A stretch of DNA of 64,000 bases from Magnetococcales bacterium (GCA_015231175.1 JADGBZ010000007.1:1846-65845); one strand, 5' to 3'. Shown: positions 2-59,244, counted from the first letter of the stretch. Translations and numbers: made by a program. Notes: generated by a model not told the origin, from the sequence alone.

Positions 2-1993
2 CCGGGGCGTTTGTTGACAGGGTGCAATTATGAACCGGGAACAAGCGGGGGATATCGGCGCATCGAAGGGTTTGAACGGTTCGATGGTCGAACAAGTCCC
101 AGTGCCGCGACTTATTGGACTTTGCGTTTTGAACTGGGCAGTGCCGAGGTGATTCAGGGGGAAACGGTCATCGGAGCCACATCGGGCGCAACCGGCAAGG
201 CGCTGGTCGATGGGATCCTGGAACAGGGCCTTTATGCGAACGCCGACGCCAGAGGATTTCTTGTCCTGCTTGATACAAGTGGGACTTTCGCCCCCGGGGA
301 GGCGGTCAAAGTGGGAAATGTAACCCGATGTTTTGCATCCAGTCACCAACTGGAGAGAGGCACAGTCGATGAAGAGGCGGACGCACTCTGGCTCCAACAA
401 GTCAGAAATATTCTCCGGGGGCGAATCCAGGCTCTTCCCGGCTCGGGATGTGTGCGCGGCGTCTGGCTCTACAAAGGAATAGCCTACGCTTTTCGGGATG
501 ATGCAGCAGGCGAGCAGTGTGTGATGCATCGCAGCAGCAGCACGGGCTGGCAACCCTGTGACCTGGGCGAGAGACTCGGTTTTCAGGCTGGGGTGTTGCC
601 TTTTGCCGAAAATGAGGCGCTGTTGGGTATGACTTCAGGGGCCAGTGCGACCATCAAACGGATTGTGGTGACAACCGGCCATTGGGAGACCGAAGATGCT
701 GCCGGTCGCTTGATTTTATACAACGTTGTCGGTGATTTTGTGGATGGCGAGGCCATCCATTCCACGCAGGGCGCCGCTACGGCAAGCGGCGTCAATGCGG
801 TGCAAACCCTGTCGGCAGGCGGGCGGTTTGAGTTTGTGAACCACAACTTTTTCGGTCATGTCTCCTCGGTACGCATGTACGGCGTCAACGGGATCGATCC
901 GGGGTTTGAATGGGACGGAGAGGTATTTGTTCCCATCTTGACAGGCATGGCAGAAGATCGCCCAACCCACCTTGCTGCACATACAAAACATCTCTTTTTT
1001 TCGTTTTCCGGTGGTTCATTGCAACACTCGGGAACAGGTGAACCCCTGGAGTGGCAAGTAAGCATCGGGGCAGGAGAGATGGCCCTGGGTGACGAAATGA
1101 CCGGCATGTTACCGGTCGTGGGTGGTGTTTTGACCCTCTTTTGTCGCAATGCGACCTATGCCCTCTATGGGACAAGCTCTGCGGATTGGCGTCTGGATTT
1201 GTTGTCTGGAGAGTCCGGCGCCATTCCCTGGACGCTACAGGATATGGGCCGCCCGGTCTACCTCGATGATCGTGGCGTTCGCCAATTGTCGGCAGTTCAA
1301 GAGTTTGGCGATTTTCACGCGGGCACGCTCAGTCATGTCATCCAGCCTTGGCTTGCCGCCAAAATGGGACAGGCCCTCTCCTCACTTCGGGTGCGCAGCA
1401 AGGATCAATATCGTATTTATTTTTCTGACAACAGCGGGTTGATCTGCACTTTGGTGTCGGGACTCTCACCGACCTTCATGCTTGTCGACTATGGTTTACC
1501 CGTGTCATGCACCTGTTCCCAGGAGGAGGTGAGTGGCTCTGAAAAATTGTTATTTGGGTCGGATAACGGCTTCGTCTACCAGTTGGATTCTGGAAAATCC
1601 TTTGATGGCCAGGAGGTGGTGGCCTTTTTGCGCTTGCCATTCAACCATCTTGGCCTGCCAGCCCATCGCAAACGCTTTCGCAAAGCTTTCCTGGAAATTG
1701 ATGCCGGCCCGGAAACAACGATACAAGTTTTGCCTAACTACTCCTATGGCAATCCAGAGATTCCATCGCCCCTGGTGCAGGTGTTTGATGTGCGCGGTGG
1801 CGGCGGTGTCTGGGATGAAGCGGAGTGGTCAGAGTTTATCTGGGACAGTCAACAGGTTGGAACAGCCGAAGCCAGAATTGACGGAGTGGGAACCAATATC
1901 GGTCTGAGCATTCTTTCGCATGCAACGGAAGAGAGTCCACACCTGATCCATGGCATTACGTACCATTTCAGCCCCAGGGGGATGATTCGATGA
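2..1993 (+). CDS. phage-type virion structural protein (tail/baseplate-associated?), 5' end probably outside window
   Basis: ORF track 11..1993 (660 aa). The frame stays open back to nt 2. ATGA stop/start overlap (1990-1993) with a recognisable tail-fibre gene. Internally duplicated motif (GETVIGATSGATGKALV / EALLGMTSGASATIKRIV). No cellular homologue recognised. Confidence 0.5.
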   Translation, partial: PGRLLTGCNYEPGTSGGYRRIEGFERFDGRTSPSAATYWTLRFELGSAEVIQGETVIGATSGATGKALVDGILEQGLYANADARGFLVLLDTSGTFAPGEAVKVGNVTRCFASSHQLERGTVDEEADALWLQQVRNILRGRIQALPGSGCVRGVWLYKGIAYAFRDDAAGEQCVMHRSSSTGWQPCDLGERLGFQAGVLPFAENEALLGMTSGASATIKRIVVTTGHWETEDAAGRLILYNVVGDFVDGEAIHSTQGAATASGVNAVQTLSAGGRFEFVNHNFFGHVSSVRMYGVNGIDPGFEWDGEVFVPILTGMAEDRPTHLAAHTKHLFFSFSGGSLQHSGTGEPLEWQVSIGAGEMALGDEMTGMLPVVGGVLTLFCRNATYALYGTSSADWRLDLLSGESGAIPWTLQDMGRPVYLDDRGVRQLSAVQEFGDFHAGTLSHVIQPWLAAKMGQALSSLRVRSKDQYRIYFSDNSGLICTLVSGLSPTFMLVDYGLPVSCTCSQEEVSGSEKLLFGSDNGFVYQLDSGKSFDGQEVVAFLRLPFNHLGLPAHRKRFRKAFLEIDAGPETTIQVLPNYSYGNPEIPSPLVQVFDVRGGGGVWDEAEWSEFIWDSQQVGTAEARIDGVGTNIGLSILSHATEESPHLIHGITYHFSPRGMIR

Positions 1994-35383: not shown

Positions 35384-35815
35384 ATGCGTATCGCCGTTAC
35401 CAGTCAAAACAAATACTCCATCACCGAACATGCTGGGCAGTGTCGCCGCTTTTGGCTGTTTGATGTGGAAAACAACGTTGTGTCCGGAGAACGCCTGGTG
35501 GAGCTGGCCCCCGAGGAGAGTTTTCATAACAATGGAATCATGGGGCCGGACCATCCGCTCTTTGGCATGCACGTCCTGATCACCAGAAGCATGGGGCAAG
35601 GTTTGAAGAATCGGTTGGCAGGAATGGGTGTGCAAGGTGTCGTCACGTCCCTGGAAGATCCAAAGTGCGCTGCCATCCTGTTTCTGGAGGGAAAGTTGCC
35701 TTCAATATCCGCACCGGACACCCGGTGCAACGGCCATGGTCACGGCCATGGTAACGGGTGTGGACCCGGACCCGGTCTCATGAACAAGCATATTGTTATC
35801 GAGCCAAAATCCTGA
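35384..35815 (+). CDS. NifX/NifB-type (dinitrogenase FeMo-cofactor-binding fold) domain protein with His-Gly tail
   Basis: ORF track 35351..35815 trimmed to ATG 35384 (GAGGTG upstream), 143 aa. MRIAVTSQN...ITEHAGQCRRFWLFDV...VLITRSMGQGLKNRLAGMGVQGV fits the fold pattern. Tail is CNGHGHGHGNGCGPGPG. Confidence 0.65.
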   Translation: MRIAVTSQNKYSITEHAGQCRRFWLFDVENNVVSGERLVELAPEESFHNNGIMGPDHPLFGMHVLITRSMGQGLKNRLAGMGVQGVVTSLEDPKCAAILFLEGKLPSISAPDTRCNGHGHGHGNGCGPGPGLMNKHIVIEPKS

Positions 35816-35949
35816 TATGTCCGTTTTTCGGTACCCCCACCGCGCAAGAGCGTGCATGGCCTTCGGTGTGGTGGGGGTCCGGAAAATCGCCCATGGTCCA
35901 GATTTTGATGGGTTCGTTGTCGGAAGAGGGTTGGTTGGAGAGAGGCCGC

Positions 35950-37542
35950 ATGATTGATCTCCGGTTAAAGGCTACCTGGGGCCATTGGATGGGTTCGTCA
36001 CGAGGAGATGGTATTGTTCAAACATTAAAAGTCATCGTCATTGTTGCGTGTATTATCTCTCTCTTTTTTTCATGGCAATATGATCAGGGACTCAACCTGG
36101 CGGATGAAGGATTTCTTTGGTACGGCGCCCAACGTGTCCTGCTGGGGGAGGTGCCGCTGCGTGATTTCATGGCCTATGATCCCGGACGCTACTACGGATT
36201 GTCCATCCTGATGGGATGGTGGGGGGACAATGGCATCGTGGCCATGCGGGGTGGCGTGGAAATGTTTCGTGCCATGGGGTTGCTGATAGGTTTGCAGGTG
36301 CTGGTTGGCACCATCAGGGTACGGAGCACCCGTTTCCTCATCCTCTCCGCCATGACGTTGCTGACGTGGATGTCCATCCACAACTTCAAGGCATTTGATA
36401 CGACGACATCCCTGGCGCTGGTCGCTGCGTTGACGTTTTTGGTGCGGAAACCGGTGGCGCAACGTTACTTTGTGACCGGCTTGTGTGTGGGCGTGGCGGC
36501 TATTTTTGGCCGCAATCACGGTGTGTACGGCGTGGTTGGCGCCATGGTCGCCATGGTCTGGTTGCACCACGGGAAGGAAAATATAGGTTGTTTTGGCAAA
36601 GGGGTTATGTATTTTATAACGGGTGTGGTTGTTGGGTGCCTGCCCATGCTGTTCATGGTGTTCTGGGTTCCCGGCTTTGCCAAGGCGCTTTGGGACAGTA
36701 TATTGTTCATGTTGTCATTCGGGGCCACCAACATTCCTCTTCCCGTTCCATGGCCATGGCTGGTCGATTTTGCCTCGATCTCCACGCTGCAATCCATTCA
36801 TGGGGTCTTGGTGGGGTTGTTCTTTGTTGGCATGATTCTTTTTAGCATGTTCTCCATCATGTGGGTGTTTTGGCAGAAGAGGAGGGGAGAACGTGTCTCT
36901 CCTCTGGTGGCTGCTGCGGCATTTTTGTCACTGCCCTATGCCCACTATGCGTTTTCTCGTGCCGATGTGGTTCATCTCTCCATGGGCATCTTTCCCATGT
37001 TGATCGGGTGTCTCGCTTTTTTGGCCCGGAGGCCGGGCCGGGCCAGGTGGCCTCTGATGCTGGTGTTGTGTGTCACCAGCATCGGGACGACCCTTCCCTA
37101 CTACCAGGGTTGGGGGTGCCTTCTCAACAGCAAGTGCGTGGTTGTGGAGGTTTCCGGCTCCAGACTCAAGGTCTCTGCCCATACGGCATCCACGATTCAG
37201 CGGCTTCGCCATCTCGTGGTGCAACAGGCCACGGGGAATCGTTCCTTCGTTGTCGCCCCCTATTGGCCCGGCGCCTACGCCTTGTTCGATCGCCAATCTC
37301 CCATGTGGGAGATCTACGCCCTGTTCAAGCGTGATCGGGCGTTCGAGGAGGCCGAAATCAAGCGAATCATGGCAGCCCAACCGGCCTTTATCCTGCTGTC
37401 CGAGATGGCCATCGATGGCCAGGAGGCGCTGCGCTTCATGTATACCCACCCTCTGACCTACCAATACATTCAGGAGAATTATGTCTTGGGCGCTTCGTAT
37501 GGGCAGCTCAGGGTGTATGACCCGAAGGTTGATGGGGGGTAA
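35950..37542 (+). CDS. polytopic membrane protein, GT-C-type glycosyltransferase-like (ArnT/PMT-like)
   Basis: ORF track 35758..37542. ATG 35950 has GGAGAGAGG upstream (530 aa). First-loop motif DEGFLWYGAQRVLLGEVPLRDF is typical of GT39/83-like enzymes. More than 10 hydrophobic segments. Confidence 0.5.
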   Translation: MIDLRLKATWGHWMGSSRGDGIVQTLKVIVIVACIISLFFSWQYDQGLNLADEGFLWYGAQRVLLGEVPLRDFMAYDPGRYYGLSILMGWWGDNGIVAMRGGVEMFRAMGLLIGLQVLVGTIRVRSTRFLILSAMTLLTWMSIHNFKAFDTTTSLALVAALTFLVRKPVAQRYFVTGLCVGVAAIFGRNHGVYGVVGAMVAMVWLHHGKENIGCFGKGVMYFITGVVVGCLPMLFMVFWVPGFAKALWDSILFMLSFGATNIPLPVPWPWLVDFASISTLQSIHGVLVGLFFVGMILFSMFSIMWVFWQKRRGERVSPLVAAAAFLSLPYAHYAFSRADVVHLSMGIFPMLIGCLAFLARRPGRARWPLMLVLCVTSIGTTLPYYQGWGCLLNSKCVVVEVSGSRLKVSAHTASTIQRLRHLVVQQATGNRSFVVAPYWPGAYALFDRQSPMWEIYALFKRDRAFEEAEIKRIMAAQPAFILLSEMAIDGQEALRFMYTHPLTYQYIQENYVLGASYGQLRVYDPKVDGG

Positions 37543-42771: not shown

Positions 42772-43680
42772 TTAACTCCCCAGTTTCCCCCCCCAAAGCA
42801 GCTTGGAACGCAAAATTTCGTAATAGCTGCGATTAGGAGTGTGCATCAACTTGAGACGGTGTCGGGCGCGACGAATCAGCACCCGGTCCCCGTTTTCCAG
42901 GGGGCAGACTGTTTGTCCATCCAGGGTGGCCATGCGGTCGGAGTCGTTGGGAGCCAGAGTCACGGCCACGACGCCCTCCGCCGGCAGAACGATAGGGCGA
43001 TTGGTCAATGTGTGCGGGGAGATGGGCACCAGAAGAATCGCTTCCAGGGCCGGGTGGATGATCGGTCCTCCGGCAGCCAGGGCATAACCCGTGGAACCCG
43101 TGGGGGTGGAGACGATCAAGCCATCGGCGCGGCTCGTACAGACGAACTGGTCATCCACCTCCACCGCAAATTCGATCATGCGGGCAATCTCCCCCTTGTG
43201 AATCACCACATCATTCAGGGTGAAGGCGGAAAAAACCTGCTCGCCGGCCCGCACGACCGTGGTTTCAAGGAGCATGCGCTCTTCAATGCTGTGGTGACCT
43301 GCCAGGACGTTCTCCAGGGTTTCGGCCATCTCGGCGTGGGGAATTTCGGTGAGAAAGCCCAACCGCCCCATGTTGATGCCCAACAGGGGCACATCGGCAC
43401 CACCCATATGCCGCGATGCTGCGATAAAAGTTCCGTCCCCGCCCAGAACCACCATAAGATCCTGATTTTCGTGCAGGTGACTTTGTTTCTGGCGCTTTGC
43501 CCAGGTTTTGGGAATATCGATGGCCACGGCGGCATCTTCCGTGACAGTCACCTGGTATCCTCGGTCGAACAACCAACCGGCAAGCCATTTGGTCGATTCC
43601 AGGGCGCGCTGATCGGAACGTTTGGTGACAAGGGCAATATGAACGATCGGGGCGGAGGCTGAATGGGGCAGGGAGGTCAT
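42772..43680 (-). CDS. nadK: NAD kinase
   Basis: 302 aa. GGDGT motif (VVLGGDGTFI). Conserved nadK-recN pairing. Confidence 0.9.
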   Translation of the reverse strand: MTSLPHSASAPIVHIALVTKRSDQRALESTKWLAGWLFDRGYQVTVTEDAAVAIDIPKTWAKRQKQSHLHENQDLMVVLGGDGTFIAASRHMGGADVPLLGINMGRLGFLTEIPHAEMAETLENVLAGHHSIEERMLLETTVVRAGEQVFSAFTLNDVVIHKGEIARMIEFAVEVDDQFVCTSRADGLIVSTPTGSTGYALAAGGPIIHPALEAILLVPISPHTLTNRPIVLPAEGVVAVTLAPNDSDRMATLDGQTVCPLENGDRVLIRRARHRLKLMHTPNRSYYEILRSKLLWGGKLGS

Positions 43681-44567
43681 GGGGCGGCGAGCCTTCCAGT
43701 AAGGTCAATGATGAATTGATGAGCCACGCGGCCACTGCGCGCACCACGGGTTTGCGCCCATGCCAGGGCCTCGGCGCATAACTGCTCCTGTGGTATGGCC
43801 AGGGCCAGATGGCGGGCGCTGTTTTCCACAATTCGCAGATAGGTCTCCTGGTCAAAGGGGTGAAACCCAAGCCAGAGCCCAAACCGATCAGAGAGGCTGA
43901 TCTGTTCTTCGGCGCTCTCCATGGGGTGATACTCTTCGCTTTCCGCAGCTGCGTCGCGTGCCATGAGGTGCCGCCGGTTGGAGGTGGCGTACAATAAAAT
44001 ATTGCCGGGCCGCCCGGCCACACCCCCCTCCAGAATCGATTTCAGGGCCTTGTAGGAACCATCCCGACGATCAAAAGAGAGGTCGTCGCAAAAAAGCAGA
44101 AAGGGCATGGTCAATATTTGCAAATGCTGGACAATCTCCGGCAGGGCAGACAGATCATCCTTGTGAACTTCCACAAGCTTGAGACGGGGAAAAAAGGGGG
44201 CGGCTACCGCTTTGACCAGCGAGGATTTGCCCGTGCCACGGCTACCCCACAACAGGGCATTGTTGGCGGGCAGGCCAGCGGCAAATTGGCGGGTATTGCG
44301 GAGAAGAATCTCCTTGGCCCGGTCGATGCCCAGCAAGGCGTCCAAAGGGAGGGGGTGAAAGGTCTCGACCGGAACCAACCCGCCACCACCCCAGGAGTTG
44401 GGGCGCCAACGAAAGACATGCCATCGCTGTAACATGGCGGGAGACGGTGGTGTGATGCTTCTTTCCCAATGCTCCAAAAGACGTTGCAGGCGTCCCAAAA
44501 GCGTTCGCGCACGACGCGGCGTCAACAGGGATTGGAGAAGGGAGGAACCTCCCCCTTCCATGAACAT
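43677..44567 (-). CDS. DUF815 family AAA-type ATPase
   Basis: ORF track 43677..44666. ATG 44567 overlaps the upstream stop (TGATG), and the 3' end overlaps nadK (ATGA). Walker A WGSRGTGKSS, then LFCDDLSF. Confidence 0.75.
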   Translation of the reverse strand: MFMEGGGSSLLQSLLTPRRARTLLGRLQRLLEHWERSITPPSPAMLQRWHVFRWRPNSWGGGGLVPVETFHPLPLDALLGIDRAKEILLRNTRQFAAGLPANNALLWGSRGTGKSSLVKAVAAPFFPRLKLVEVHKDDLSALPEIVQHLQILTMPFLLFCDDLSFDRRDGSYKALKSILEGGVAGRPGNILLYATSNRRHLMARDAAAESEEYHPMESAEEQISLSDRFGLWLGFHPFDQETYLRIVENSARHLALAIPQEQLCAEALAWAQTRGARSGRVAHQFIIDLTGRLAAP

Positions 44568-46585
44568 CAGGCGGATATCTCCTCTTCGATGGTGCGAATC
44601 AGGCGCACACCCATGGCGTCGCTCAGTGTCGTGACGGACACCCGGTTGCGGTGCGCCACACGGCAAGCTCCAACCTGGCTGCGCCAGCTACCCCCACGGC
44701 GTACCCGGCCATCGCCAAATGGGGCGCCATGGGGATTTTTTTTTGGGCTGCGGGCATAAAAATCTTCGCTGTACCAGTCGGCTGTCCACTCCCAAACGTT
44801 GCCGATCATGTCATACAGGCCCCAGGCATTGGGCAGCTTTTTGCCGACCGGCTGGGTGCCGCCACGGGAGTTTTTGGCAAACCAGCTGTACTGATCCAGC
44901 AGGTTCGGGTCATCGCCGAAGGGAAAAATGGCATCGGATCCAGCGCGGGCAGCGTACTCCCACTCCGCTTCGGTGGGAATGCGGACATGAACCCCGCCCT
45001 GACATAACCTGGAGAAACTTCGCACCAGTTCCTGAATGTCGTCCCATAGGATTCTTTCCACCGGACAATCCTTTTTTTCCGGTACATACAGACTTTTCGG
45101 GTCACCCATGATCTGTTTCCACTCTCCCCAGGTGACCGGATGCTGGCCCATCCAAAATCCATCCAGCTCGACCAGGTGTTGGGGGACTTCATCGGAGCGG
45201 CGACCGGGCGCACCCTTGGCGCTTCCCATCAGGAAAGATCCGCCCGGAATCCAGACAAACTTCATGCCTGTTACCTGCTCTTTCCAGAGATCACCTGGTT
45301 TGCGCTCTTCGATGGGTTTGGGGGGCAGATTGTTGGCTGGGGAGACGGAAGGGGATGGGGGCGCAGGGGCCAAACCGGCAGAGACCTTGGCAACCGGCGC
45401 CGAATGGGCCGCAGCAGGCTTGGTTGCAGCCCGATTATTGAGCGATGTCGCGGGGGAAAGACGCTTGGTGTCCGTTCTCTTGGTGTTGGTGCCAAAATCG
45501 TTCATGGAAGCGATAAAGCTGCGCCATGAGTTTTTCTTGATGTTGGATCCGAAGATGGTCCTGGGTGAGTCCCCTGTTGGGGGCGGCGATTTTCCGGCAG
45601 GTGCGGAAACGGTCGAGGGAGAGGAAACGCCGGCCTTGGCAACCGGTGCTGGAGTGGCCCGAACGGAATCTTTGGTGGCGCTGAAACAACCCAACAAAAG
45701 CGGACGCCAATCCGCGATGGATTGTGGACGTTCGGTCTCAATGACCATGAGCGCTTTGTCAATGGCGGCAAGGAATGCAGGGTGGTATTGGCCCTCTCCT
45801 GCTTCCGAGGCGGATTTCATGGGGTCGGGTTCGTTGCGCAGCCGTGCGTTGATGCGAATGGCAGCATCGGGCGGTTTGGCGCCGGTGATGGCCCGGTACA
45901 ACACACCACCCATGGCGTAGATGTCAGACCATGGCCCTTGGCGATTGCCGGTGGAGTCGTATTGCTCAAAGGGTGAGTAGCCCATGCTCAACAGGCTGGT
46001 CATCTGTTCGCCGCCATGGCCGGCAATGGCTTGTCGGGCGGAGCCGAAATCCAGAATGACCGGAGAGCCATTGGCGCGAACCAGAATGTTGGCTGGTTTG
46101 ATATCGCGATGGATGAAATCCTTGTTATGGAGCACTTCCAGACCATCCAGGAGCGGGGAAATCAGACGGACGATCTCACCTTCGGACAGAACCTTTTTGG
46201 CCTTCAGGACAGCGTCCAGACTCTCCCCCTCCTCGTACTCCATCACCATGTAGGCGGTGTTGCTGTCGCGGAAGAAACTCATCACCCGGACAATGTTCGG
46301 GTGTTTGAAGCGGGCCAGAATCTGGGCTTCCTTCAGAAAGCGATCCAAACCCCACTCGAAGGTTTTGGTGTCCGTAGGGGAGTTCGGCAGGACATTGCGC
46401 CCCTTTTCGCGAACGGCGAAACCTTTGGGGAGATACTCTTTGATGGCCACCTTCTGATCCAGGTTGGTATCCTTGGCCAGGTAGGTGATGCCGAAGCCAC
46501 CTTTCCCGAGAACCTTGACGATCTCGTACCACAACAGCGTGGAACCGGGGGGGAGGGAATCGACGAATTTTGTTGAACTCATCAT
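44567..46585 (-). CDS. Ser/Thr protein kinase fused to a formylglycine-generating-enzyme (FGE-sulfatase/SUMF1) domain
   Basis: 672 aa. Kinase motifs GKGGFG, AIKEY, HRDIKPANIL, DFG. Pro/Ala/Ser-rich linker. C-terminal FGE-type domain (FWMGQHPVTWGEW, EAEWEYAARAG, WGLYDMIGNVWEW, RGGSW). Confidence 0.85.
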   Translation of the reverse strand: MMSSTKFVDSLPPGSTLLWYEIVKVLGKGGFGITYLAKDTNLDQKVAIKEYLPKGFAVREKGRNVLPNSPTDTKTFEWGLDRFLKEAQILARFKHPNIVRVMSFFRDSNTAYMVMEYEEGESLDAVLKAKKVLSEGEIVRLISPLLDGLEVLHNKDFIHRDIKPANILVRANGSPVILDFGSARQAIAGHGGEQMTSLLSMGYSPFEQYDSTGNRQGPWSDIYAMGGVLYRAITGAKPPDAAIRINARLRNEPDPMKSASEAGEGQYHPAFLAAIDKALMVIETERPQSIADWRPLLLGCFSATKDSVRATPAPVAKAGVSSPSTVSAPAGKSPPPTGDSPRTIFGSNIKKNSWRSFIASMNDFGTNTKRTDTKRLSPATSLNNRAATKPAAAHSAPVAKVSAGLAPAPPSPSVSPANNLPPKPIEERKPGDLWKEQVTGMKFVWIPGGSFLMGSAKGAPGRRSDEVPQHLVELDGFWMGQHPVTWGEWKQIMGDPKSLYVPEKKDCPVERILWDDIQELVRSFSRLCQGGVHVRIPTEAEWEYAARAGSDAIFPFGDDPNLLDQYSWFAKNSRGGTQPVGKKLPNAWGLYDMIGNVWEWTADWYSEDFYARSPKKNPHGAPFGDGRVRRGGSWRSQVGACRVAHRNRVSVTTLSDAMGVRLIRTIEEEISA

Positions 46586-46705: not shown

Positions 46706-47713
46706 TCAAGGGTGATACGGATCCGTCGAAAGCCGCATCCGCAAAGCGCCGGCCTGATCTTCGAGCGCCTCTTGGGGAATGGCGCGCTCTTCGCTGTCCA
46801 ACGAGTCCATCTTGGCGAACTCGAAATGGGCGCCCTCCCACTCTTTTTTTCCCTTGACGAGGAGGGGCTGATCCAGATCCAGCTCGGGCTCAACCCGGAC
46901 TTCGCCCAGGAGACCCTGAGGGTTTGCGTCTGTATCTTCGACGTACTCGACCCCTTCTTCCTGGTCAGGTTCGGATGTCGAAAAGGTGACGGCGCCGCGT
47001 ATCCAGTCGGAGAGGGTCCAGACGATTTGTTGTACAATGTCCGCCAGAAAAAAGAAACCCTGTTGGATCACATCCGTTACAAACCAGGCGATCTGTTTGG
47101 TGGCCTCCATCAGATGCCAGACCCCCTTTTTCAGCAGGGTCATCAGCTCGGAGAGGAGATACAGCCCCCATTCCGTGAGAAAATGCAGCCACTCCAGAAA
47201 AATGCCGACACCCTGTCGCAGCAGCAACGCTGCGCTGACCAGGGCAAAAGTGGTCCATTGCCAGGAAAAACGCAGGAAGTGAAAGGTCCACTCCAACGTG
47301 CGCCGTGTGGCAAAAAAACTCCATTGCAGAGTGCATCCGGTAGCGAAAATCAACCACTGGATAGTGCGAAAGAGGGTGATGAAACTCCACTGGATGGAGC
47401 GGGCGACCATGAAAAACAGGGTCGCCAGGATGCCGCCCGACGCCGACATGACAGTTGTGGCGCCACGCAGTGAAGTGCCCCCGACGCGGCGGATGGTCGC
47501 GGAAACCGGTGCGGACATGGACCTGGACGGGCCTCGCTCCGGAGCCCGGCGCAAACTGGGAAGCTTGGGCAGTCGAATGAAAATCCTCTCCGAGGTGGAT
47601 TTCATGACAGGCCGTGAGCGGTTGCGTTTTTCCACACGTTGATTGGACAACAAAGAAGGTTTGGCGGGCACCCGGCTCCTTTTGTTACCCAATGTTCTCT
47701 TCGCGGTGATCAT
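46706..47713 (-). CDS. hypothetical protein with ~13 tandem 11-residue Trp/Phe-rich repeats and an acidic C-terminus
   Basis: 335 aa. Strong SD (GAGAGGGA) 5 nt upstream of ATG 47713. GC3 in a 29-codon sample is about 62% in this frame against about 34% for the antisense ORF. Repeats such as RSIQWSFITLF / RTIQWLIFATG / CTLQWSFFATR / RTLEWTFHFLR. Confidence 0.6.
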   Translation of the reverse strand: MITAKRTLGNKRSRVPAKPSLLSNQRVEKRNRSRPVMKSTSERIFIRLPKLPSLRRAPERGPSRSMSAPVSATIRRVGGTSLRGATTVMSASGGILATLFFMVARSIQWSFITLFRTIQWLIFATGCTLQWSFFATRRTLEWTFHFLRFSWQWTTFALVSAALLLRQGVGIFLEWLHFLTEWGLYLLSELMTLLKKGVWHLMEATKQIAWFVTDVIQQGFFFLADIVQQIVWTLSDWIRGAVTFSTSEPDQEEGVEYVEDTDANPQGLLGEVRVEPELDLDQPLLVKGKKEWEGAHFEFAKMDSLDSEERAIPQEALEDQAGALRMRLSTDPYHP

Positions 47714-47996: not shown

Positions 47997-48449
47997 ATGG
48001 AGGCTTTTTTGTCGACTCATCCCCTTGACCTGGTTGCAGGGATCTCTTTCCGTCAGGCGCCAGGAGAGGAGGGGTTCAGGGGGGCGTGGGGTCCGCAACA
48101 GCGGCCTGCGGCGCACTCCTTTTCCGGAAACTGGGTTCTTTGTTCCCGGTGTGCGCACCGGATCACCCGGTTTGACATGGGGTCGCGGGAGCAAGGGCGC
48201 CATGAACACGTTTTTTTCAACCCCCAGGGGATGCTCTTCCTGATCCGCTGTTATGTGGCGGCCCCGGGGTGTTTGGTCATGGGTCATCCGACCAGGGAGT
48301 TTTCCTGGTTCAAGGCCTGCGCGTGGCAGTACGCCTTGTGTGGTGGTTGCCATCACCATCTGGGGTGGCATTACATGAATGGCTCCGATGTTGCATTTTT
48401 TGGCCTGATCGTCAACAGGTTGACGTATCCACCCTCCAATCCACCCTGA
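47997..48449 (+). CDS. CULT-domain protein (bacterial cereblon thalidomide-binding-domain homologue)
   Basis: 150 aa (start uncertain). Two CxxC pairs (CSRC, CGGC) and the aromatic-cage context HEHVFFNPQGMLF...EFSWFKACAWQYALCGGCHHHLGWHY, closely resembling the Magnetospirillum single-domain cereblon homologue. Confidence 0.8.
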   Translation: MEAFLSTHPLDLVAGISFRQAPGEEGFRGAWGPQQRPAAHSFSGNWVLCSRCAHRITRFDMGSREQGRHEHVFFNPQGMLFLIRCYVAAPGCLVMGHPTREFSWFKACAWQYALCGGCHHHLGWHYMNGSDVAFFGLIVNRLTYPPSNPP

Positions 48450-48479
48450 AATTTGCCCCGGTCAAGGATCATACACGCC

Positions 48480-48902
48480 ATGATGCCATCAGCCCCCCAC
48501 AGCCCCAGTCATCCACGTTTGGGACACCTGACCCCCCACGAAGCCCATGCCATGGTGCAAAATAAAGATGTTGTCTTCGTGGATATTCGTTCGGAGATCG
48601 AACACTTTTTCGTTGGTAATCCCCCTGGAATCATCAACATTCCCTGGCAAGACGCCCCGGATTTTGAACTCAATCCCAACTTTGTCGCCGAGGTTGGCCA
48701 GGTGGCCCGCAAAGATCAGACCCTGGTTCTCATCTGCCGCTCGGGGCATCGCTCCATCGATGCGGGCAACACCCTGCTCGAAAATGGTTTCACCTCGGTC
48801 TACAACGTTCTGGAGGGGTTTGAAGGGGACCGGGACGAACATCACCATCGCTCCAGCGTCAACGGTTGGCGGTTTCGGGGCCTGCCCTGGGTGCAGTGCT
48901 GA
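48480..48902 (+). CDS. rhodanese-domain sulfurtransferase
   Basis: ORF track 48453..48902. ATG 48480 has AAGGA upstream (140 aa). Active-site loop CRSGHRS. Confidence 0.8.
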   Translation: MMPSAPHSPSHPRLGHLTPHEAHAMVQNKDVVFVDIRSEIEHFFVGNPPGIINIPWQDAPDFELNPNFVAEVGQVARKDQTLVLICRSGHRSIDAGNTLLENGFTSVYNVLEGFEGDRDEHHHRSSVNGWRFRGLPWVQC

Positions 48903-49642
48903 TGCGCGATCATCCTGTCACAGGTTTCCTCTACGCCCAACGGGGTATCAGGATTTTGACCAAACCGGGTTTGCGACGTTTTGTGGCGGTGCCGCTGCTG
49001 GTCAATTGTGTGGTTTTTGGCCTGGGAACATGGTACATCTATCAGACGTATCGCAGCACCATCGGCTGGCTGCTGGACTGGATCCCTTCCTGGCTCCATT
49101 GGCTGGAGTGGGTCATCGCCCCCATGTTTGTGGTGTCGCTGGTGCTGGTTCTCTTTTTTGCCTTCACTCTGGTGGCCAATCTCCTGGGGGCTCCCTTCAA
49201 CGGTCTCTTGGCGGATCGTGTGGAACAACTGCTCTCCGAACAGGCAACAACAGTTCCGCAACATGGGGATGTGAAACGGATTTTGAAGGAGATGCTGCCG
49301 GCCATCCTGGATGAGTTGGGCAAGGTGCTGCATGTGGTCAAATGGATGATCCCCATCTTTTTCATCACCGCCATTCCCGGGATCAACCTGTTGGCACCCC
49401 TCATCTGGACCCTGTTTACCGCCTGGTTTTTGGCTGTGGGTTACCTTGACTTTCCCATGTCGAACAATCGGCTGAAGGGAAGGGAAATCCGGGAGAGGAT
49501 CCGGGAAAAACGTTTGACAGTCATGGGTTTTGGCGTGGGGGTTCTGTTCATGAGCAGCATTCCCGTGTTGAACCTCCTCGCCATGCCGGCTGCGGTGGCC
49601 GGGGCGACGGCGCTGTGGGTGGAGCATTTCAAGGAGGCCTGA
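48902..49642 (+). CDS. cysZ: CysZ-like (EI24/DUF540 family) sulfate transporter
   Basis: ORF track 48866..49642 trimmed to ATG 48902, which overlaps the rhodanese stop (TGATG). 246 aa. GFLYAQRGIRILTKPGLRRFVAVPLLVN and APFNGLLADRVE are typical of CysZ. Confidence 0.75.
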   Translation: MRDHPVTGFLYAQRGIRILTKPGLRRFVAVPLLVNCVVFGLGTWYIYQTYRSTIGWLLDWIPSWLHWLEWVIAPMFVVSLVLVLFFAFTLVANLLGAPFNGLLADRVEQLLSEQATTVPQHGDVKRILKEMLPAILDELGKVLHVVKWMIPIFFITAIPGINLLAPLIWTLFTAWFLAVGYLDFPMSNNRLKGREIRERIREKRLTVMGFGVGVLFMSSIPVLNLLAMPAAVAGATALWVEHFKEA

Positions 49643-51366: not shown

Positions 51367-53094
51367 TTAAAAGAGTTCGATATCATCCCCACCGTCGTCA
51401 GTCGTGGTGGCCTGACCGTCGAGTTCCGATTCGTGAATTTTTCTCTCTGAATTCATGGTGTAAAGCTTGGAGAGATCTGCAAATTCACCGGAGAGGTCGT
51501 GCAGATCTCCGTCCAGGTATTTTGTCTGATCGCCTGCCACATCCCGCATCAGCTTGCGCAGGCCGGCCAGGACGTTTGTTATGATGTCATTGATTTCACG
51601 ATGGAAATCCATCTCGGCCATCAGCAGTGTGACCTGGGTGGAGGTGGCGCGTGCATCGACCAGGGATTCGTGAAACAGGCGGATCAGGTCGTTGTTGGAG
51701 GTGTCCATCTGTTGTGTGGTCAGAGGGATCCGCCGCAACAGGGTGTTGGTGCGCATGAGCCTGGGCGTGGTGTTTTCGGAGTAACTGAGGCTGATCTTTT
51801 GGATCCGGTCCACGGCCTTGTTCAACTCTTCGCTGAGGAGAGGGTTCTCCTCGATGATGGATTTGACCAGGGAGCGGATGCTGGCGACCAGGGAGTCCAG
51901 CCGGTTGTTGCCGCCTGTTTTCATGGAAGCAGAAATGCTTTCGAGGCGCTGTGAAGTCATGATCAGCATGTCCATGGCTCGTCTGGCCTGGAAGACGCCA
52001 CTGTCAGCCTTGGAAAGGGTTTTGAGAACCTCATTGGAGAGGGTGTCGTCAAAGATTCCCAAGCGCTGCGAACCGGCCATCAGATAGGTGATATCGGTGG
52101 CGTGCTGGTGAAATCGCCGCGTGATGGAGCGGGCCTGGGCAAGTTGAGTCACCTGCTCTTCGGCGATGGTGCCGATGCTGGCCAGGTGCTCCTGCATGGT
52201 CTTGATGGCCCCGACCAGATCGTTGCAGGTGTCCTCCAATTGCCGGATGGTGATGCGGATGGCGATCAGGGACCACTGCACGGCTTTCTCGTTGGTTGCG
52301 GGGTCGTCTGCCGTGGCGGCAAGTTGCAGCTTTTCCTTGGCCTGACGCAACCCCTCCAAGGCGTGATGAACCCTCTGCGAAGCGATGTCGTCGAACTGCA
52401 TGGCCTGAACCATTTCAAAGACCACGCTGCCGACCTGGTCAGACCGTTTTTCCATGCCGGTACAAATGCCCTGGACCTTGGCAACCTCCTTGAACATGCT
52501 CTGAATGGTCTCTTCGGCGCTTTTCTGGAGACCATCCAGGGAACTTTTGGAGATTTCCATATCGGTTCCCAAACGTTTCATCAGGTGTTCGAGAACGTCA
52601 CGGGTTTCCTGGCTGGATGAGACAATTTCATTGATCAAAGGGCTGGTCTGTTCCATCAGGTTGTCGATCATGGAGCCCAGGGTATGGCGTTCCATGCGTT
52701 CGCTGTTCTGGGATTTGATCTGGTCGACCACACGGGGGAGAAAGGCCCTCTGCTCGATCTGCAAACCCCAGTCGGTGATCTTTTCCAGACGCTTGACCAG
52801 GGGGGATTTTTGGACGATCAGTTTGTCGAGGACAACGAAGAGTTTCTCCACCTCATCGTGGATCTGCTCCATGTCCTTGCGCAGCGGGTGCAACCCCATG
52901 TCGCCGCTGGAGTCGATGCGCTCTTTGATCAAGACGGCACGGCTGGCGCTGGCGGCAAAACTGCCGGAAAAATGACCCATATGATCAGCGATATTGGAAA
53001 AGCCGCCCTTGCTGGTCTCCGGGACTTTCTCCAGTATGGACATCAAACGATCCATCTTGGTGGCTATGCTCGTTCCCCCTGCTGAATCTTCCAC
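51367..53094 (-). CDS. long alpha-helical hypothetical protein with a CheZ-like F-D-D-x3-Q motif
   Basis: 575 aa. GTG start with GGGGGA 6 nt upstream. Heptad-like Leu/Ile/Glu/Lys-rich sequence throughout. MQFDDIASQRVHH at residues 232-244. No MCP signalling hairpin. Confidence 0.55.
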   Translation of the reverse strand: MEDSAGGTSIATKMDRLMSILEKVPETSKGGFSNIADHMGHFSGSFAASASRAVLIKERIDSSGDMGLHPLRKDMEQIHDEVEKLFVVLDKLIVQKSPLVKRLEKITDWGLQIEQRAFLPRVVDQIKSQNSERMERHTLGSMIDNLMEQTSPLINEIVSSSQETRDVLEHLMKRLGTDMEISKSSLDGLQKSAEETIQSMFKEVAKVQGICTGMEKRSDQVGSVVFEMVQAMQFDDIASQRVHHALEGLRQAKEKLQLAATADDPATNEKAVQWSLIAIRITIRQLEDTCNDLVGAIKTMQEHLASIGTIAEEQVTQLAQARSITRRFHQHATDITYLMAGSQRLGIFDDTLSNEVLKTLSKADSGVFQARRAMDMLIMTSQRLESISASMKTGGNNRLDSLVASIRSLVKSIIEENPLLSEELNKAVDRIQKISLSYSENTTPRLMRTNTLLRRIPLTTQQMDTSNNDLIRLFHESLVDARATSTQVTLLMAEMDFHREINDIITNVLAGLRKLMRDVAGDQTKYLDGDLHDLSGEFADLSKLYTMNSERKIHESELDGQATTTDDGGDDIELF

Positions 53095-56687: not shown

Positions 56688-57452
56688 ATGAACCTCGAAG
56701 CCATTCGATTGCAAAACTGGTATGCCACGGCCCAGGGTCGTACAGTGGCCCGTGTGATCGGAGGGGGGGTGGAGCGATGGATGCGCCCCCATGCCACGGG
56801 GAACACGTTCGGCTTTGGCTTCGTTCAGCCCTACATGGAGTTCATCATTTCCGGTCGGGGGGGTTCCTTCGGGGCGTCGCCGGCGGAGATGGGCGTTGTT
56901 CCCTGGCCGAACGGGTCGCCCAATCGCATGGCCCTGGTACGCCCCAATGCCTTGCCCTACCCGGATGGTCACTTTGACCGGGTGTTTATGGTACACATCC
57001 TGGAAGGGGCGGATTCGCCGCGTGAGACGCTGCGCGAAGTCTGGCGGGTGATGAAGCCGGGTGGACGCCTCTTCATTGTGGCGCCGAATCGGGGCGGGTT
57101 TTGGGCGCGGCGGGATACCACCCCCTTCGGATGGGGGCGCCCCTTTTCGCCGCGGCAGATCCAGGAGTTGCTGGAAGCCTCTTTTTTTGTGCTGCGCCAA
57201 GCCAGGTTTGCCCTGTTCGTGCCCCCTTTTCCGGGGCGGCGGATTTTGCGCTCGGCAGCAACCTGGGAAAAGGTTGGGGAACGATGGTTTGCCCGGTTTG
57301 GCGGGGTCATTCTGAGCGATGCGGAAAAGGTGGTCCACGCCGTCACCCCTTTGTTGGAAAAACCCTTTTGTCTGCGCCAGCCGAGAAGGGTCGTCCTGCC
57401 TTTGGCTGGCAATCGGGACGCCGTCAATTCAAGGAGAATCGAGCATGACTGA
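56688..57452 (+). CDS. class I SAM-dependent methyltransferase-like protein
   Basis: ORF track 56637..57452 trimmed to ATG 56688 (254 aa). FDRVFMVHILEGADSPRETLREVWRVMKPGGRLFIVAPN is typical of Methyltransf_11-like proteins found divergent from gloB in alphaproteobacteria. Confidence 0.7.
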   Translation: MNLEAIRLQNWYATAQGRTVARVIGGGVERWMRPHATGNTFGFGFVQPYMEFIISGRGGSFGASPAEMGVVPWPNGSPNRMALVRPNALPYPDGHFDRVFMVHILEGADSPRETLREVWRVMKPGGRLFIVAPNRGGFWARRDTTPFGWGRPFSPRQIQELLEASFFVLRQARFALFVPPFPGRRILRSAATWEKVGERWFARFGGVILSDAEKVVHAVTPLLEKPFCLRQPRRVVLPLAGNRDAVNSRRIEHD

Positions 57453-58335
57453 TGCTTTCATGATCAACCGGTTCATGGATGAACTTTTGGTGGAACACGG
57501 GCTCTCGGCCAACACCCTGGAGGCCTATCGCCAGGATTTGGAGGGTTTATCCGCATTTTTAGCCCTCCGTGGCGGTGATCTGTTGCGGGCCGATCGCGAG
57601 ACGCTTCTCTGCTATCTCAGCGCATTGACTGCCCGGGATATGGCGGCCAGTTCCGTGGCCCGCAAGCAGTCGGCGTTTCGGCGCTTTTATCGGCATCTGG
57701 TTTTGCGCGACGAGCGGGAGGATGATCCCACCCATCTGTTGGACTCCCCCCATCTGCAACGCCATTTGCCGCAAATCCTGAATGAAGAGGAGGTCGAATC
57801 CCTGCTGAACGCCCCGGATCGCAGCACCGAGTTGGGTCTGCGGGATGCGGCCATGCTGGAACTGCTCTATGCCACGGGTCTGCGCGTATCCGAGTTGATC
57901 TTTCTGGAAACGGACAGCATCGAACCGGGTTTCGGTTTTGTGCGGGTGGTGGGGAAGGGAGACAAGGAACGCCTGGTGCCGGTCGGAGAGGCGGCCCTGG
58001 ATATTGTGGAAAAGTATCGGCGCTCGGCGCGCCTGCTCCTGTTGGCGGGAAGCCCGACCCGCGCCCTGTTCGTGACAGCCCGGGGCGGTCCCATGACCCG
58101 GCAAAATTTTTGGTATGTCATCCGCCGTCATGCCGTCATGGCAGGCATCACCAAACCTTTGTCACCTCATCTGCTGCGCCACTCGTTTGCCTCACATCTG
58201 CTCAACCATGGCGCCGACCTGCGGGCCGTGCAGATGATGCTTGGCCATGCCGATATCTCGACCACGGAAATCTATACCCACCTGGCCCAGGATCGCCTGA
58301 AACAGATTCATCGGCAACTGCATCCAAGGGCCTGA
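57445..58335 (+). CDS. xerD: site-specific tyrosine recombinase XerD
   Basis: ORF track 57319..58335 trimmed to ATG 57445 (296 aa). Collinear with E. coli XerD, including LYATGLRVSEL, HLLRHSFASHLL, LGHADISTTEIYTH and the LHPRA terminus. Confidence 0.9.
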   Translation: MTDAFMINRFMDELLVEHGLSANTLEAYRQDLEGLSAFLALRGGDLLRADRETLLCYLSALTARDMAASSVARKQSAFRRFYRHLVLRDEREDDPTHLLDSPHLQRHLPQILNEEEVESLLNAPDRSTELGLRDAAMLELLYATGLRVSELIFLETDSIEPGFGFVRVVGKGDKERLVPVGEAALDIVEKYRRSARLLLLAGSPTRALFVTARGGPMTRQNFWYVIRRHAVMAGITKPLSPHLLRHSFASHLLNHGADLRAVQMMLGHADISTTEIYTHLAQDRLKQIHRQLHPRA

Positions 58336-58341
58336 TCGCAC

Positions 58342-59244
58342 GTGAAATTCATCGACCCAAGAATCGACTTTGCCTTCAAGAGGATCTTCGGCAGCGAAGA
58401 TGCGAAGGATATTTTGATCAGTTTTCTTGAGAGCCTCCTGGAACTTGAGGGTGAACGCCGCATTGTTGAACTGACGATCCTGGACCCCTTTTTGGCGCCG
58501 AAGGTCCGTGAACTGAAATACTCGGTACTGGATGTCAAATGCCGGGATCATCGTGGCGTTTCCTATATTGTGGAGATGCAGATTCAGAAGACGGCTGCTT
58601 TCCTGAAACGGATCCAGTACAACGCCGCCAAGGCCTACGTTCACCAGATTGAAAAAGGCGAAGATTATCCCAAGCTCAACCAGGTGATTGCCATCACCAT
58701 CACCGATTTTCCCCTGTTCGATGGTTTCGACCACTGCGTCTCGCGTCATGAGACCCGAGAGGCGGTCACCGGGCAGACTTTTCTTCAGGAAATCCTTCAC
58801 TGTTTTATCGAGTTGCCAAAATTCAACAAATCCATCGGGGAACTGACCGACGTATTGGACCAGTGGATCTGGTTCATCAGGTTTGCCGGTTCCGTGGAGG
58901 CAATTCCGGATCGGATACGAGTTGAGCCAATCCGCCACGCCTTTGCAAGGGCCACCGTGGCCAATATGACAGCAGAGGAGTATGAACTTTACGACAAAGC
59001 CGGCATTGCCATCGCGGATGCCCAGGGAGCGGTTCAGTTGGCACGCCAGGAAGGGCGTCAGGAAGGGCGTCAGGAAGGGCTTCGCGAAGGTGAAAGACGC
59101 ACTCTGTATCGACTGCTTGAGAAGCGGTTTGGCTCGGTTCCGGAGTGGGTGCATGCCAGACTTGCCCAGGCTGATCTTGCAGCCCTGGGGAGGTGGACAG
59201 AGAACGTCCTGGAGGCCAAGGTGATTGACGAAGTTTTTTTGTAG
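58342..59244 (+). CDS. Rpn/YhgA-like PD-(D/E)XK recombination-promoting nuclease (putative transposase family)
   Basis: 300 aa, GTG start. Signature N-terminus MKFIDPRIDFAFKRIFG, nuclease core LDVKC...IVEMQIQK, C-terminal QEGRQEGRQEGLREGE repeat. Confidence 0.8.
   Translation: MKFIDPRIDFAFKRIFGSEDAKDILISFLESLLELEGERRIVELTILDPFLAPKVRELKYSVLDVKCRDHRGVSYIVEMQIQKTAAFLKRIQYNAAKAYVHQIEKGEDYPKLNQVIAITITDFPLFDGFDHCVSRHETREAVTGQTFLQEILHCFIELPKFNKSIGELTDVLDQWIWFIRFAGSVEAIPDRIRVEPIRHAFARATVANMTAEEYELYDKAGIAIADAQGAVQLARQEGRQEGRQEGLREGERRTLYRLLEKRFGSVPEWVHARLAQADLAALGRWTENVLEAKVIDEVFL

Follow-up and report, generated by a model that had tools for sequence, protein, structure and literature searches.

A phased 11-residue Trp-rich repeat in a small Magnetococcales protein encoded beside a Ser/Thr kinase: a candidate unit-wise expansion of a membrane segment

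What is the origin of thirteen consecutive 11-residue units, rich in Trp and Phe, in a small bacterial protein, and what could such an array do? The question is raised by a 64,000-nucleotide (nt) stretch of DNA from a Magnetococcales bacterium (GCA_015231175.1 JADGBZ010000007.1:1846-65845; hereafter the window, with positions counted from its first letter), which encodes on its minus strand a protein of 335 amino acids (aa) whose residues 104-246, running from 47404 down to 46976, form the array. An original prediction, made from the sequence alone, had proposed a membrane- or lipid-surface-binding helix akin to apolipoproteins, perilipins, synucleins and LEA proteins. We favour, with moderate confidence, a clade-specific, unit-wise expansion of the membrane segment in a small Magnetococcales kinase-partner protein. 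The gene and the parts of its array are as follows.

46706..47713, minus strand: complete coding sequence (CDS) of 335 aa, with the sequence of hypothetical protein HQL63_02720 from a Magnetococcales metagenome-assembled genome
47720..47726, minus strand: Shine-Dalgarno-like GAGAGGG, 6 nt before the ATG, read from the sequence
47240..47404, minus strand: type A units 1-5 (residues 104-158), consensus x-R-T-L-Q-W-S-F-F-A-T/L, lag-11 z 7.6
47141..47239, minus strand: units 6-8 (residues 159-191), of which 6 and 8 are unlike all other units in a unit-versus-unit score matrix
46976..47140, minus strand: units 9-13 (residues 192-246), the most conserved part of the helix

The coordinates and reading frame given by the original prediction for residues 104-246 of the 335-aa product are correct, and so is its strand, which it had chosen from the Shine-Dalgarno sequence and the GC content of third codon positions: GC at codon positions 1/2/3 of the CDS is 57/46/69%. 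The ratio of non-synonymous to synonymous substitution (dN/dS) over the whole CDS is ~0.18 against two orthologues. Judged by this purifying selection and by its orthologues, 46706-47713 is a real gene.

The periodicity was assessed by a BLOSUM62 self-score over residues 91-250 against 5000 composition-preserving shuffles. Maxima of the self-score occur at lags of 11 and 22 (z 7.58 each), 33 (z 5.65) and 44 (z 4.71), none of them being equalled in any of the 5000 shuffles, and lags 7, 14, 18 and 25, expected from ordinary helix amphipathicity, stay at z <= 2. Each sub-array shows the signal when tested apart (z 7.6 for units 1-5, z 5.1 for units 7-13), as does each of the three close orthologues (z 6.8-9.6). 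The period claimed by the original prediction thus has statistical backing, and residues 104-246 keep a strict 11-residue register. Their composition includes 12 Trp (8.4%), 16 Phe and no Pro, with 13% of residues charged.

The array is heterogeneous and comprises two unit types. Across 18 type A units from four orthologues, Trp occupies position 6 in all 18, Gln position 5 in 14 and Arg position 2 in 10; unit 7 of the window protein is also type A-like. Units 9-12 form type B, which is amphipathic and has the consensus D/E-phi-phi-K/Q-Q-x-phi-W/F-F-phi-x, and unit 13 resembles no other unit. The parse into 13 consecutive 11-mers is therefore fair as a register, but only ~10 units are similar to another unit. 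The further claim that Trp recurs at one fixed position in most units does not hold, as 6 of the 13 (type A) have Trp at position 6 and 3 of the 13 (type B) have it at position 8. In the DNA, Tandem Repeats Finder detected no 33-bp repeat, which marks the array as old. Among the orthologues, the helix contains one indel only, the absence of exactly one 11-residue unit from orthologue P0002. Residues 181-246 are 88-91% identical among the orthologues (dN/dS 0.05), with dN/dS of 0.04-0.06 there and at the C-terminus.

AlphaFold2 (AF2) predicts one uninterrupted helix spanning residues 82-245 between disordered tails, with a predicted local distance difference test score (pLDDT) mostly >90 in the helix and block means of 81-94 over residues 91-240; no Pro occurs in these 164 residues. 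The search for transmembrane (TM) segments combined crude hydrophobicity scales with a TopPred-like scan, and the neighbouring CysZ protein served as positive control. Wimley-White interfacial sums reach -7 to -9 kcal/mol per 19 residues, within the range of the true CysZ TM helices. The classical hydrophobic moment is 0.05-0.25 in type A (median 0.11) and 0.3-0.47 over residues 160-246, and the Kyte-Doolittle (KD) moment of type B (residues 192-235) was matched by 0 of 3000 shuffles. On a 3-11 helical wheel, type A places Leu, Leu and Phe on one face; Arg, Gln and Phe share the opposite face with the invariant Trp, and Ser, Thr and Ala lie on the flank. This modelled layout suits a helix sunk at the glycerol-phosphate level of the bilayer. 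Taken from sequence properties, membrane association is the most economical reading of the array.

Eleven residues correspond to three turns of a 3-11 helix, and the window protein shares tandem 11-mers and a long unbroken helix with the apoA-I 11/22-mers, the 11-mer region of perilipins, the N-terminus of alpha-synuclein and the group 3 LEA proteins. Lipid surface binding would be a further likeness, as is the division of type B into polar (K/Q, D/E, Q) and apolar sides, and type B alone approaches the low-hydrophobicity, high-moment pattern of apolipoproteins. However, the window repeats have neither a Lys-rich interface nor Pro punctuation and share no sequence homology with these proteins, which are soluble until bound to lipid, whereas the window protein is unlikely ever to be soluble. 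Compared with approximate sequences of alpha-synuclein and apoA-I, the repeat region is more hydrophobic (0.79 vs ~0.2, Fauchere-Pliska scale), poorer in charged residues (13% vs 22-35%) and richer in aromatic ones (20% vs 3-6%). By this comparison the apolipoprotein-like reading fails, and an apolipoprotein- or synuclein-like amphipathic helix is not a likely model for an array that is too hydrophobic, too charge-poor and too aromatic, with a low type A moment. No Pfam family matched the window protein at E <= 0.01; the Apolipoprotein, Perilipin, Synuclein and LEA_4 models of Pfam matched none of 14 family members at E <= 1, and NCBIfam yielded none at E <= 10. Neither the window protein alone nor a profile of the family retrieved anything meaningful from Pfam, NCBIfam or the sequences of the PDB. 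The lipid-surface helix of the original prediction is supported in part, by the proline-free helix, the 11-residue indel and the amphipathic type B units; its likeness to apolipoproteins, perilipins, synucleins and LEA proteins is not supported. What is likely is a phased 11-residue helix, probably seated on or in a membrane.

The original prediction knew of no bacterial family that matches. This is true of curated libraries, but an unnamed Magnetococcales family exists, of which the repeats are a clade-specific expansion. Homologues were found at two depths. Three orthologues at 64-68% identity, all from Magnetococcales, are accompanied by distant relatives: a profile search of 1.84 billion representative proteins retrieved only 6 proteins, 5 of them from Magnetococcales, and added four distant relatives of 165-281 aa, three of them from Magnetococcales; a genome scan yielded five further family loci; and upstream walks from kinase orthologues uncovered members missed by sequence searches, including one in Magnetococcus marinus MC-1. 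Scans of Joint Genome Institute (JGI) metagenome contigs confirmed no relatives, and the family did not turn up in a search of the literature for 11-residue or hendecad Trp repeats and for kinases of Magnetococcales. All named sources of family members are Magnetococcales, and by these searches the window protein is a member of an uncurated, uncharacterised family restricted to that order.

An alignment of 18 members and a table of charges and segments for 19 reveal a common plan: a basic N-terminal tail carrying S-x-L-x-N-Q-[KR]-V-x-x-R, a hydrophobic segment, an acidic linker and a C-terminal helix with K-x-x-x-L-x-x-E-E...L-x-D-Q-A-x-x-L-[RK] (K-M-x-x-L-D-x-E-E...L-E-D-Q-A-x-x-L-R in the window protein). 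Seven of the nine invariant columns of the alignment fall within the C-terminal motif (K301, E309, L317, D319, Q320, A321 and L324). All 19 members share a charge asymmetry about the hydrophobic segment, with +3 to +23 on its N side and -1 to -43 on its C side, and the basic N-terminus and acidic C-terminus noted by the original prediction are borne out by net charges of +19 for residues 1-103 and -16 for residues 247-335. The hydrophobic segment itself is single and ~30 residues long in most members, and ~164 residues long in the clade of the window protein.

Outside this clade the segment has grown in other ways. The P0005 clade (25% identity; L003:8001-8846) has six 11-mers of its own, GLxWALxNGYA, with an invariant Trp (z 9.4) and, as in type A, a Trp/Arg face set against a Leu face; a second lineage thus shows a design of 11 residues phased by Trp. 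The 331-aa member at L017:1433-2428 (GCA_039908535.1) instead carries three tandem 29-residue copies of the ancestral hydrophobic segment, with a lag-29 z of 5.6 and no lag-11 signal, each copy reaching TM-helix scores, and the acidic linker of this member includes a stretch of consecutive SEE repeats. In Magnetococcus marinus MC-1 (CP000471, between record positions 2,388,723 and 2,400,870), the 203-aa member at L011:4305-4916 has a clear TM-like segment (WMLLLLQGVVMFIGGLYFLL) and lies directly upstream of a kinase orthologue. The parts of the window protein that flank or underlie its array are the following.

47465..47713, minus strand: basic N-terminal tail (residues 1-83), predicted to be disordered (pLDDT ~40)
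47612..47665, minus strand: family-wide N-terminal motif (residues 17-34, AKPSLLSNQRVEKRNRSR); L22 is invariant in alignments, Q25 and R30 nearly so
47405..47464, minus strand: lead-in of small and hydrophobic residues (residues 84-103, GATTVMSASGGILATLFFMV), KD 1.62
47186..47269, minus strand: probable ancestral core of the family hydrophobic segment (~residues 149-176, ...FALVSAALLLRQGVGIFLEWL), with a conserved [KR]-[NQ]-G motif
46844..46975, minus strand: fast-evolving acidic linker (residues 247-290, net -9), dN/dS 0.39, 29-48% identity, pLDDT <50
46709..46843, minus strand: conserved C-terminal helical motif (residues 291-335), dN/dS 0.04-0.05

Residues 1-70 alone carry a net charge of +16, and residues 71-103 add another +3; the stretch 36-92 is rich in Ser and Thr. 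The lead-in (residues 84-103) is the strongest TM-like segment of the clade, with TopPred-like values of 2.0-2.3 in three orthologues. MAFFT aligns the hydrophobic segment of the short forms to ~149-176, a stretch that overlaps unit 5, spans units 6-7 and contains the best KD window (155-173), and we tentatively regard it as the ancestral hydrophobic segment; a small hidden Markov model of that segment gave two weak and ambiguous placements on the long form, at 162-176 and 226-240. The C-terminal motif reads E-x-x-K-M-x-x-L-D-x-E-E-x-x-I-P-x-E-x-L-E-D-Q-A-G-A-L-R.

The gene next downstream is the one to which gene order ties the family.

44567..46585, minus strand: Hanks-type Ser/Thr kinase with a C-terminal FGE-sulfatase-like domain (Pfam)

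In each of the 16 loci examined, the family gene is followed immediately by such a kinase gene, with gaps of ~0-290 nt; in the window it begins 121 nt downstream of the repeat gene, and no terminator-like site was seen in this gap. Kinase identity across loci falls from 82% to 46%, and the family protein, outside its two motifs, has diverged almost past recognition. No TM segment was found in the kinase on four hydrophobicity scales, and its single TopPred-like match lies inside the FGE domain. A single-domain rhodanese gene is usually divergent and upstream of the family gene. When an upstream partner was sought outside Magnetococcales, the closest outside kinase orthologue examined (39% identity) had a Fer2 protein upstream instead, and a magnetosome gene cluster was rejected as the context of the window locus, whose neighbours are housekeeping genes (ClpA, RecN, NAD kinase and RlmL).

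From gene order, we infer that the family protein is a membrane-bound partner of the adjacent soluble kinase, for which it might act as anchor, scaffold, regulator or substrate, one or both of its conserved terminal motifs serving as contact sites. In the clade of the window protein, the membrane segment would have grown from ~30 to ~160 residues by the addition of 11-residue units, each of which would leave the faces aligned, since a slightly underwound (3-11) helix completes three turns in 11 residues. Three geometries can be envisaged for the helix in the membrane: a helix lying fully in-plane; a single TM core at ~149-176, with the basic type A units inside and the acidic type B units and tail outside, which is the best fit to the positive-inside rule; or two TM helices, 84-104 and 146-166, flanking type A units 1-4.

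Several observations weigh against this account. Gene order is the sole basis of the kinase link. The AF2 prediction drew on an alignment of 4 sequences only and has a predicted template modelling score (pTM) of 0.22, and a long single helix is a frequent AF2 default for repeats. The hydrophobicity scales conflict over the repeats, with poor Hessa sums and favourable octanol sums. Several short forms have only ~12 contiguous apolar residues around a central Lys/Arg-Asn, and two of them score below the 'putative' TM threshold, whereas the MC-1 and L017 members are TM-grade, so that a single family-wide topology is not evident. Moreover, conservation as high as that of residues 181-246 points to specific contact with a protein over generic lipid binding.

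The same data can be read in other ways. An ordinary polytopic membrane protein, with two or three TM helices within residues 84-166 and an 11-residue period that is a leftover of evolution without structural meaning, is in our judgement unlikely, although the TopPred-like scan does give 'certain' peaks at 84-104 (2.02), 117-137 (1.41) and 146-166 (1.05), of which the first and last are conserved in orthologues. The candidate segments overlap true CysZ TM helices in their KD values (1.62 and 1.72) and Hessa sums (1.9-3.6), and the TM-grade copies of L017, three in number, would keep the N-terminus in and the C-terminus out. The candidates at 84-104 and ~146-173 are borderline to good and conserved in the clade. 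The one at 117-137 is confined to the window protein, where it depends on a lineage-specific change from Arg, present in P0003 and P0004, to Cys at residue 127; its unit is wholly absent from P0002, in which the topology would consequently flip. The scan also makes a false 'certain' call inside the soluble FGE domain of the kinase. Between the candidate spans lie repeat units of the same sequence rather than distinct loops or turns: the would-be loops (units 1 and 4) match the would-be TM units (2-3), the consensus unit has Arg at position 2 and Gln at position 5, and neither Pro nor a polar turn occurs in 164 residues, with the register held over 13 units. Ordinary TM helices, which the original prediction had itself set against its reading, may thus be present at 84-104 and 146-166, but the array between them is, by its sequence, unlike ordinary TM helices and loops.

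Less probable still is a self-associating hendecad coiled coil, that is, a soluble or cortical filament or an oligomeric stalk of ~24 nm whose units would pack as the core of a bundle, either straight or right-handed, and would not be bound to lipid. Hendecad (11/3) coiled coils are known from the tetrabrachion stalk and from segments of trimeric autotransporter stalks, and the window array resembles them in its 11-residue period, in the straight helix predicted by AF2 and in the a-d-e-h spacing of a hendecad core, which type A reproduces with apolar residues at positions 8, 11, 1 and 4; type B adds a wide contiguous apolar stripe, and the 88-91% identity of residues 181-246 is what a specific protein-protein interface would produce. 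However, two more positions are aromatic than such a core requires, since W6 and F9 of type A fall outside it and would be exposed to solvent, and the surface is nearly devoid of charge (11% of type A residues); 11-14% charged residues at a mean hydrophobicity of 0.8 are implausible for a soluble coiled coil. The array is, furthermore, joined to a membrane-anchor family whose short-form members have ~30 residues here, too short for a stalk. Foldseek found 0 matches to the AF2 model in the PDB, which counts against this alternative and is also expected because the model is one long helix. We give very little credence to a coat or tether of a hydrophobic inclusion (lipid or polyhydroxyalkanoate granules, sulfur globules or a magnetosome-related membrane) of the phasin or perilipin kind and unrelated to the kinase. 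Very hydrophobic amphipathic helices with bulky aromatic residues do favour lipid monolayers and surfaces with packing defects, the family is restricted to magnetotactic cocci, and sulfur-related annotations (rhodanese, CysZ and the FGE-sulfatase domain) occur among the neighbours. Yet the locus is a housekeeping one, most members have a single short segment, gene order links the family to a kinase and not to inclusion-biogenesis genes, and no phasin, perilipin or other Pfam model matches.

Beyond the expansion of a membrane segment in a kinase partner, a bolder reading, which we hold to be possible but doubtful, is that type A represents a hitherto undescribed class of membrane-binding repeat in bacteria: a 3-11 helix, tunable in length and striped with Trp, that would be embedded in the lipid interface over as much as ~20 nm and would form the membrane subunit of a split receptor kinase in magnetotactic cocci. 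Leu and Phe would face down, Trp, Arg and Gln would lie at the glycerol-phosphate level, units would be gained or lost in whole three-turn steps, and the repeat would position or gate a Hanks kinase that is itself soluble. Among known helices, the Trp-rich interfacial juxtamembrane type (for example, the membrane-proximal external region of HIV gp41) and the Trp/Arg-rich membrane-active peptides each consist of one stretch of 20-25 residues. They resemble the window repeats in combining Trp and Arg beside a hydrophobic core and in a strongly favourable Wimley-White interfacial energy; they differ in having no phased array (up to 13 units in the window) and in an unrelated sequence and biological context. 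As for the kinase pairing, KbpA with AfsK in Streptomyces and the Mkap proteins of Myxococcus are small soluble partners encoded beside Hanks kinases. Like them, the family protein is small and non-enzymatic, is encoded at a fixed place beside a Ser/Thr kinase gene and keeps short conserved motifs within an otherwise fast-evolving sequence; unlike them, it would be membrane-bound and would interact with its kinase, as judged from synteny, and no homology connects the two groups. The 'Proteo1' family of bacterial Ser/Thr kinases includes a domain organisation with an FGE-sulfatase domain, as in the kinase next to the repeat gene, and the FGE passage of that report makes no mention of an upstream partner protein (bioRxiv 10.1101/2025.01.12.632604).

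Other features of the neighbourhood were noted in passing. The divergent gene at 47997-48449 (plus strand) encodes a 150-aa bacterial CULT domain protein, which matches PDB 'cereblon isoform 4' chains (4v2y and others) at phmmer E = 1.2e-27, the thalidomide-binding domain of human cereblon more weakly and, in Pfam, only Yippee-Mis18 and weakly so; we take the bacterial model protein in those chains to come from Magnetospirillum gryphiswaldense. In L001-L005, the closer loci, the CULT gene is conserved alongside the rhodanese and CysZ genes. Sulfur-related annotations at 48453-49642 (plus strand) and 44567-46585 (minus strand) comprise a rhodanese (72-90% identity across loci), a member of the CysZ sulfate transporter family and the FGE-sulfatase-like domain of the kinase, and what they share may be a coincidence of naming. 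Just past the kinase, a small convergent PilZ-domain gene is present in L011 (MC-1), L015, L016 and L017 and not in the window, and L017 has an FHA-domain gene near the locus. A DUF815 AAA-type ATPase gene (43677-44666, minus strand) follows the kinase here and in L002 and is absent from L001; its open reading frame (ORF), taken from a TTG, overlaps the 3' end of the kinase gene by 100 nt, and hence its true start is probably further downstream. Farther away, ORFs of 594 and 575 aa (35758-37542, plus strand, and 51367-53094, minus strand) have no Pfam match; L002 has a 575-aa gene without Pfam match in a position similar to that of the latter, the resemblance being one of length and position alone. 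At 57319-59244 (plus strand), a PD-(D/E)XK_2 transposase-like gene comes directly after a XerC/D-type tyrosine recombinase gene.

Eukaryotes offer well-known examples of helical 11-residue repeats that bind to lipid surfaces; in bacteria such repeats are, to our knowledge, rare and poorly documented. The type A repeat has an unusual chemistry, with an invariant Trp flanked by Arg and Gln and hardly any other charge, and a clear evolutionary origin in the proposed stepwise growth of the hydrophobic segment of a small order-specific protein, a segment that other lineages of the family have expanded differently, the P0005 clade by another 11-mer and L017 by triplicating a 29-mer. The interest of the finding is moderate, both to membrane-protein biophysics and to the study of signalling in magnetotactic cocci, and its practical value is modest for now. 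It also brings to light a previously unremarked and strictly conserved gene pair of the Magnetococcales, present in the cultured MC-1 as well, in which a small, probably membrane-anchored protein and a soluble kinase with an FGE-sulfatase domain may together constitute a two-part signalling unit.

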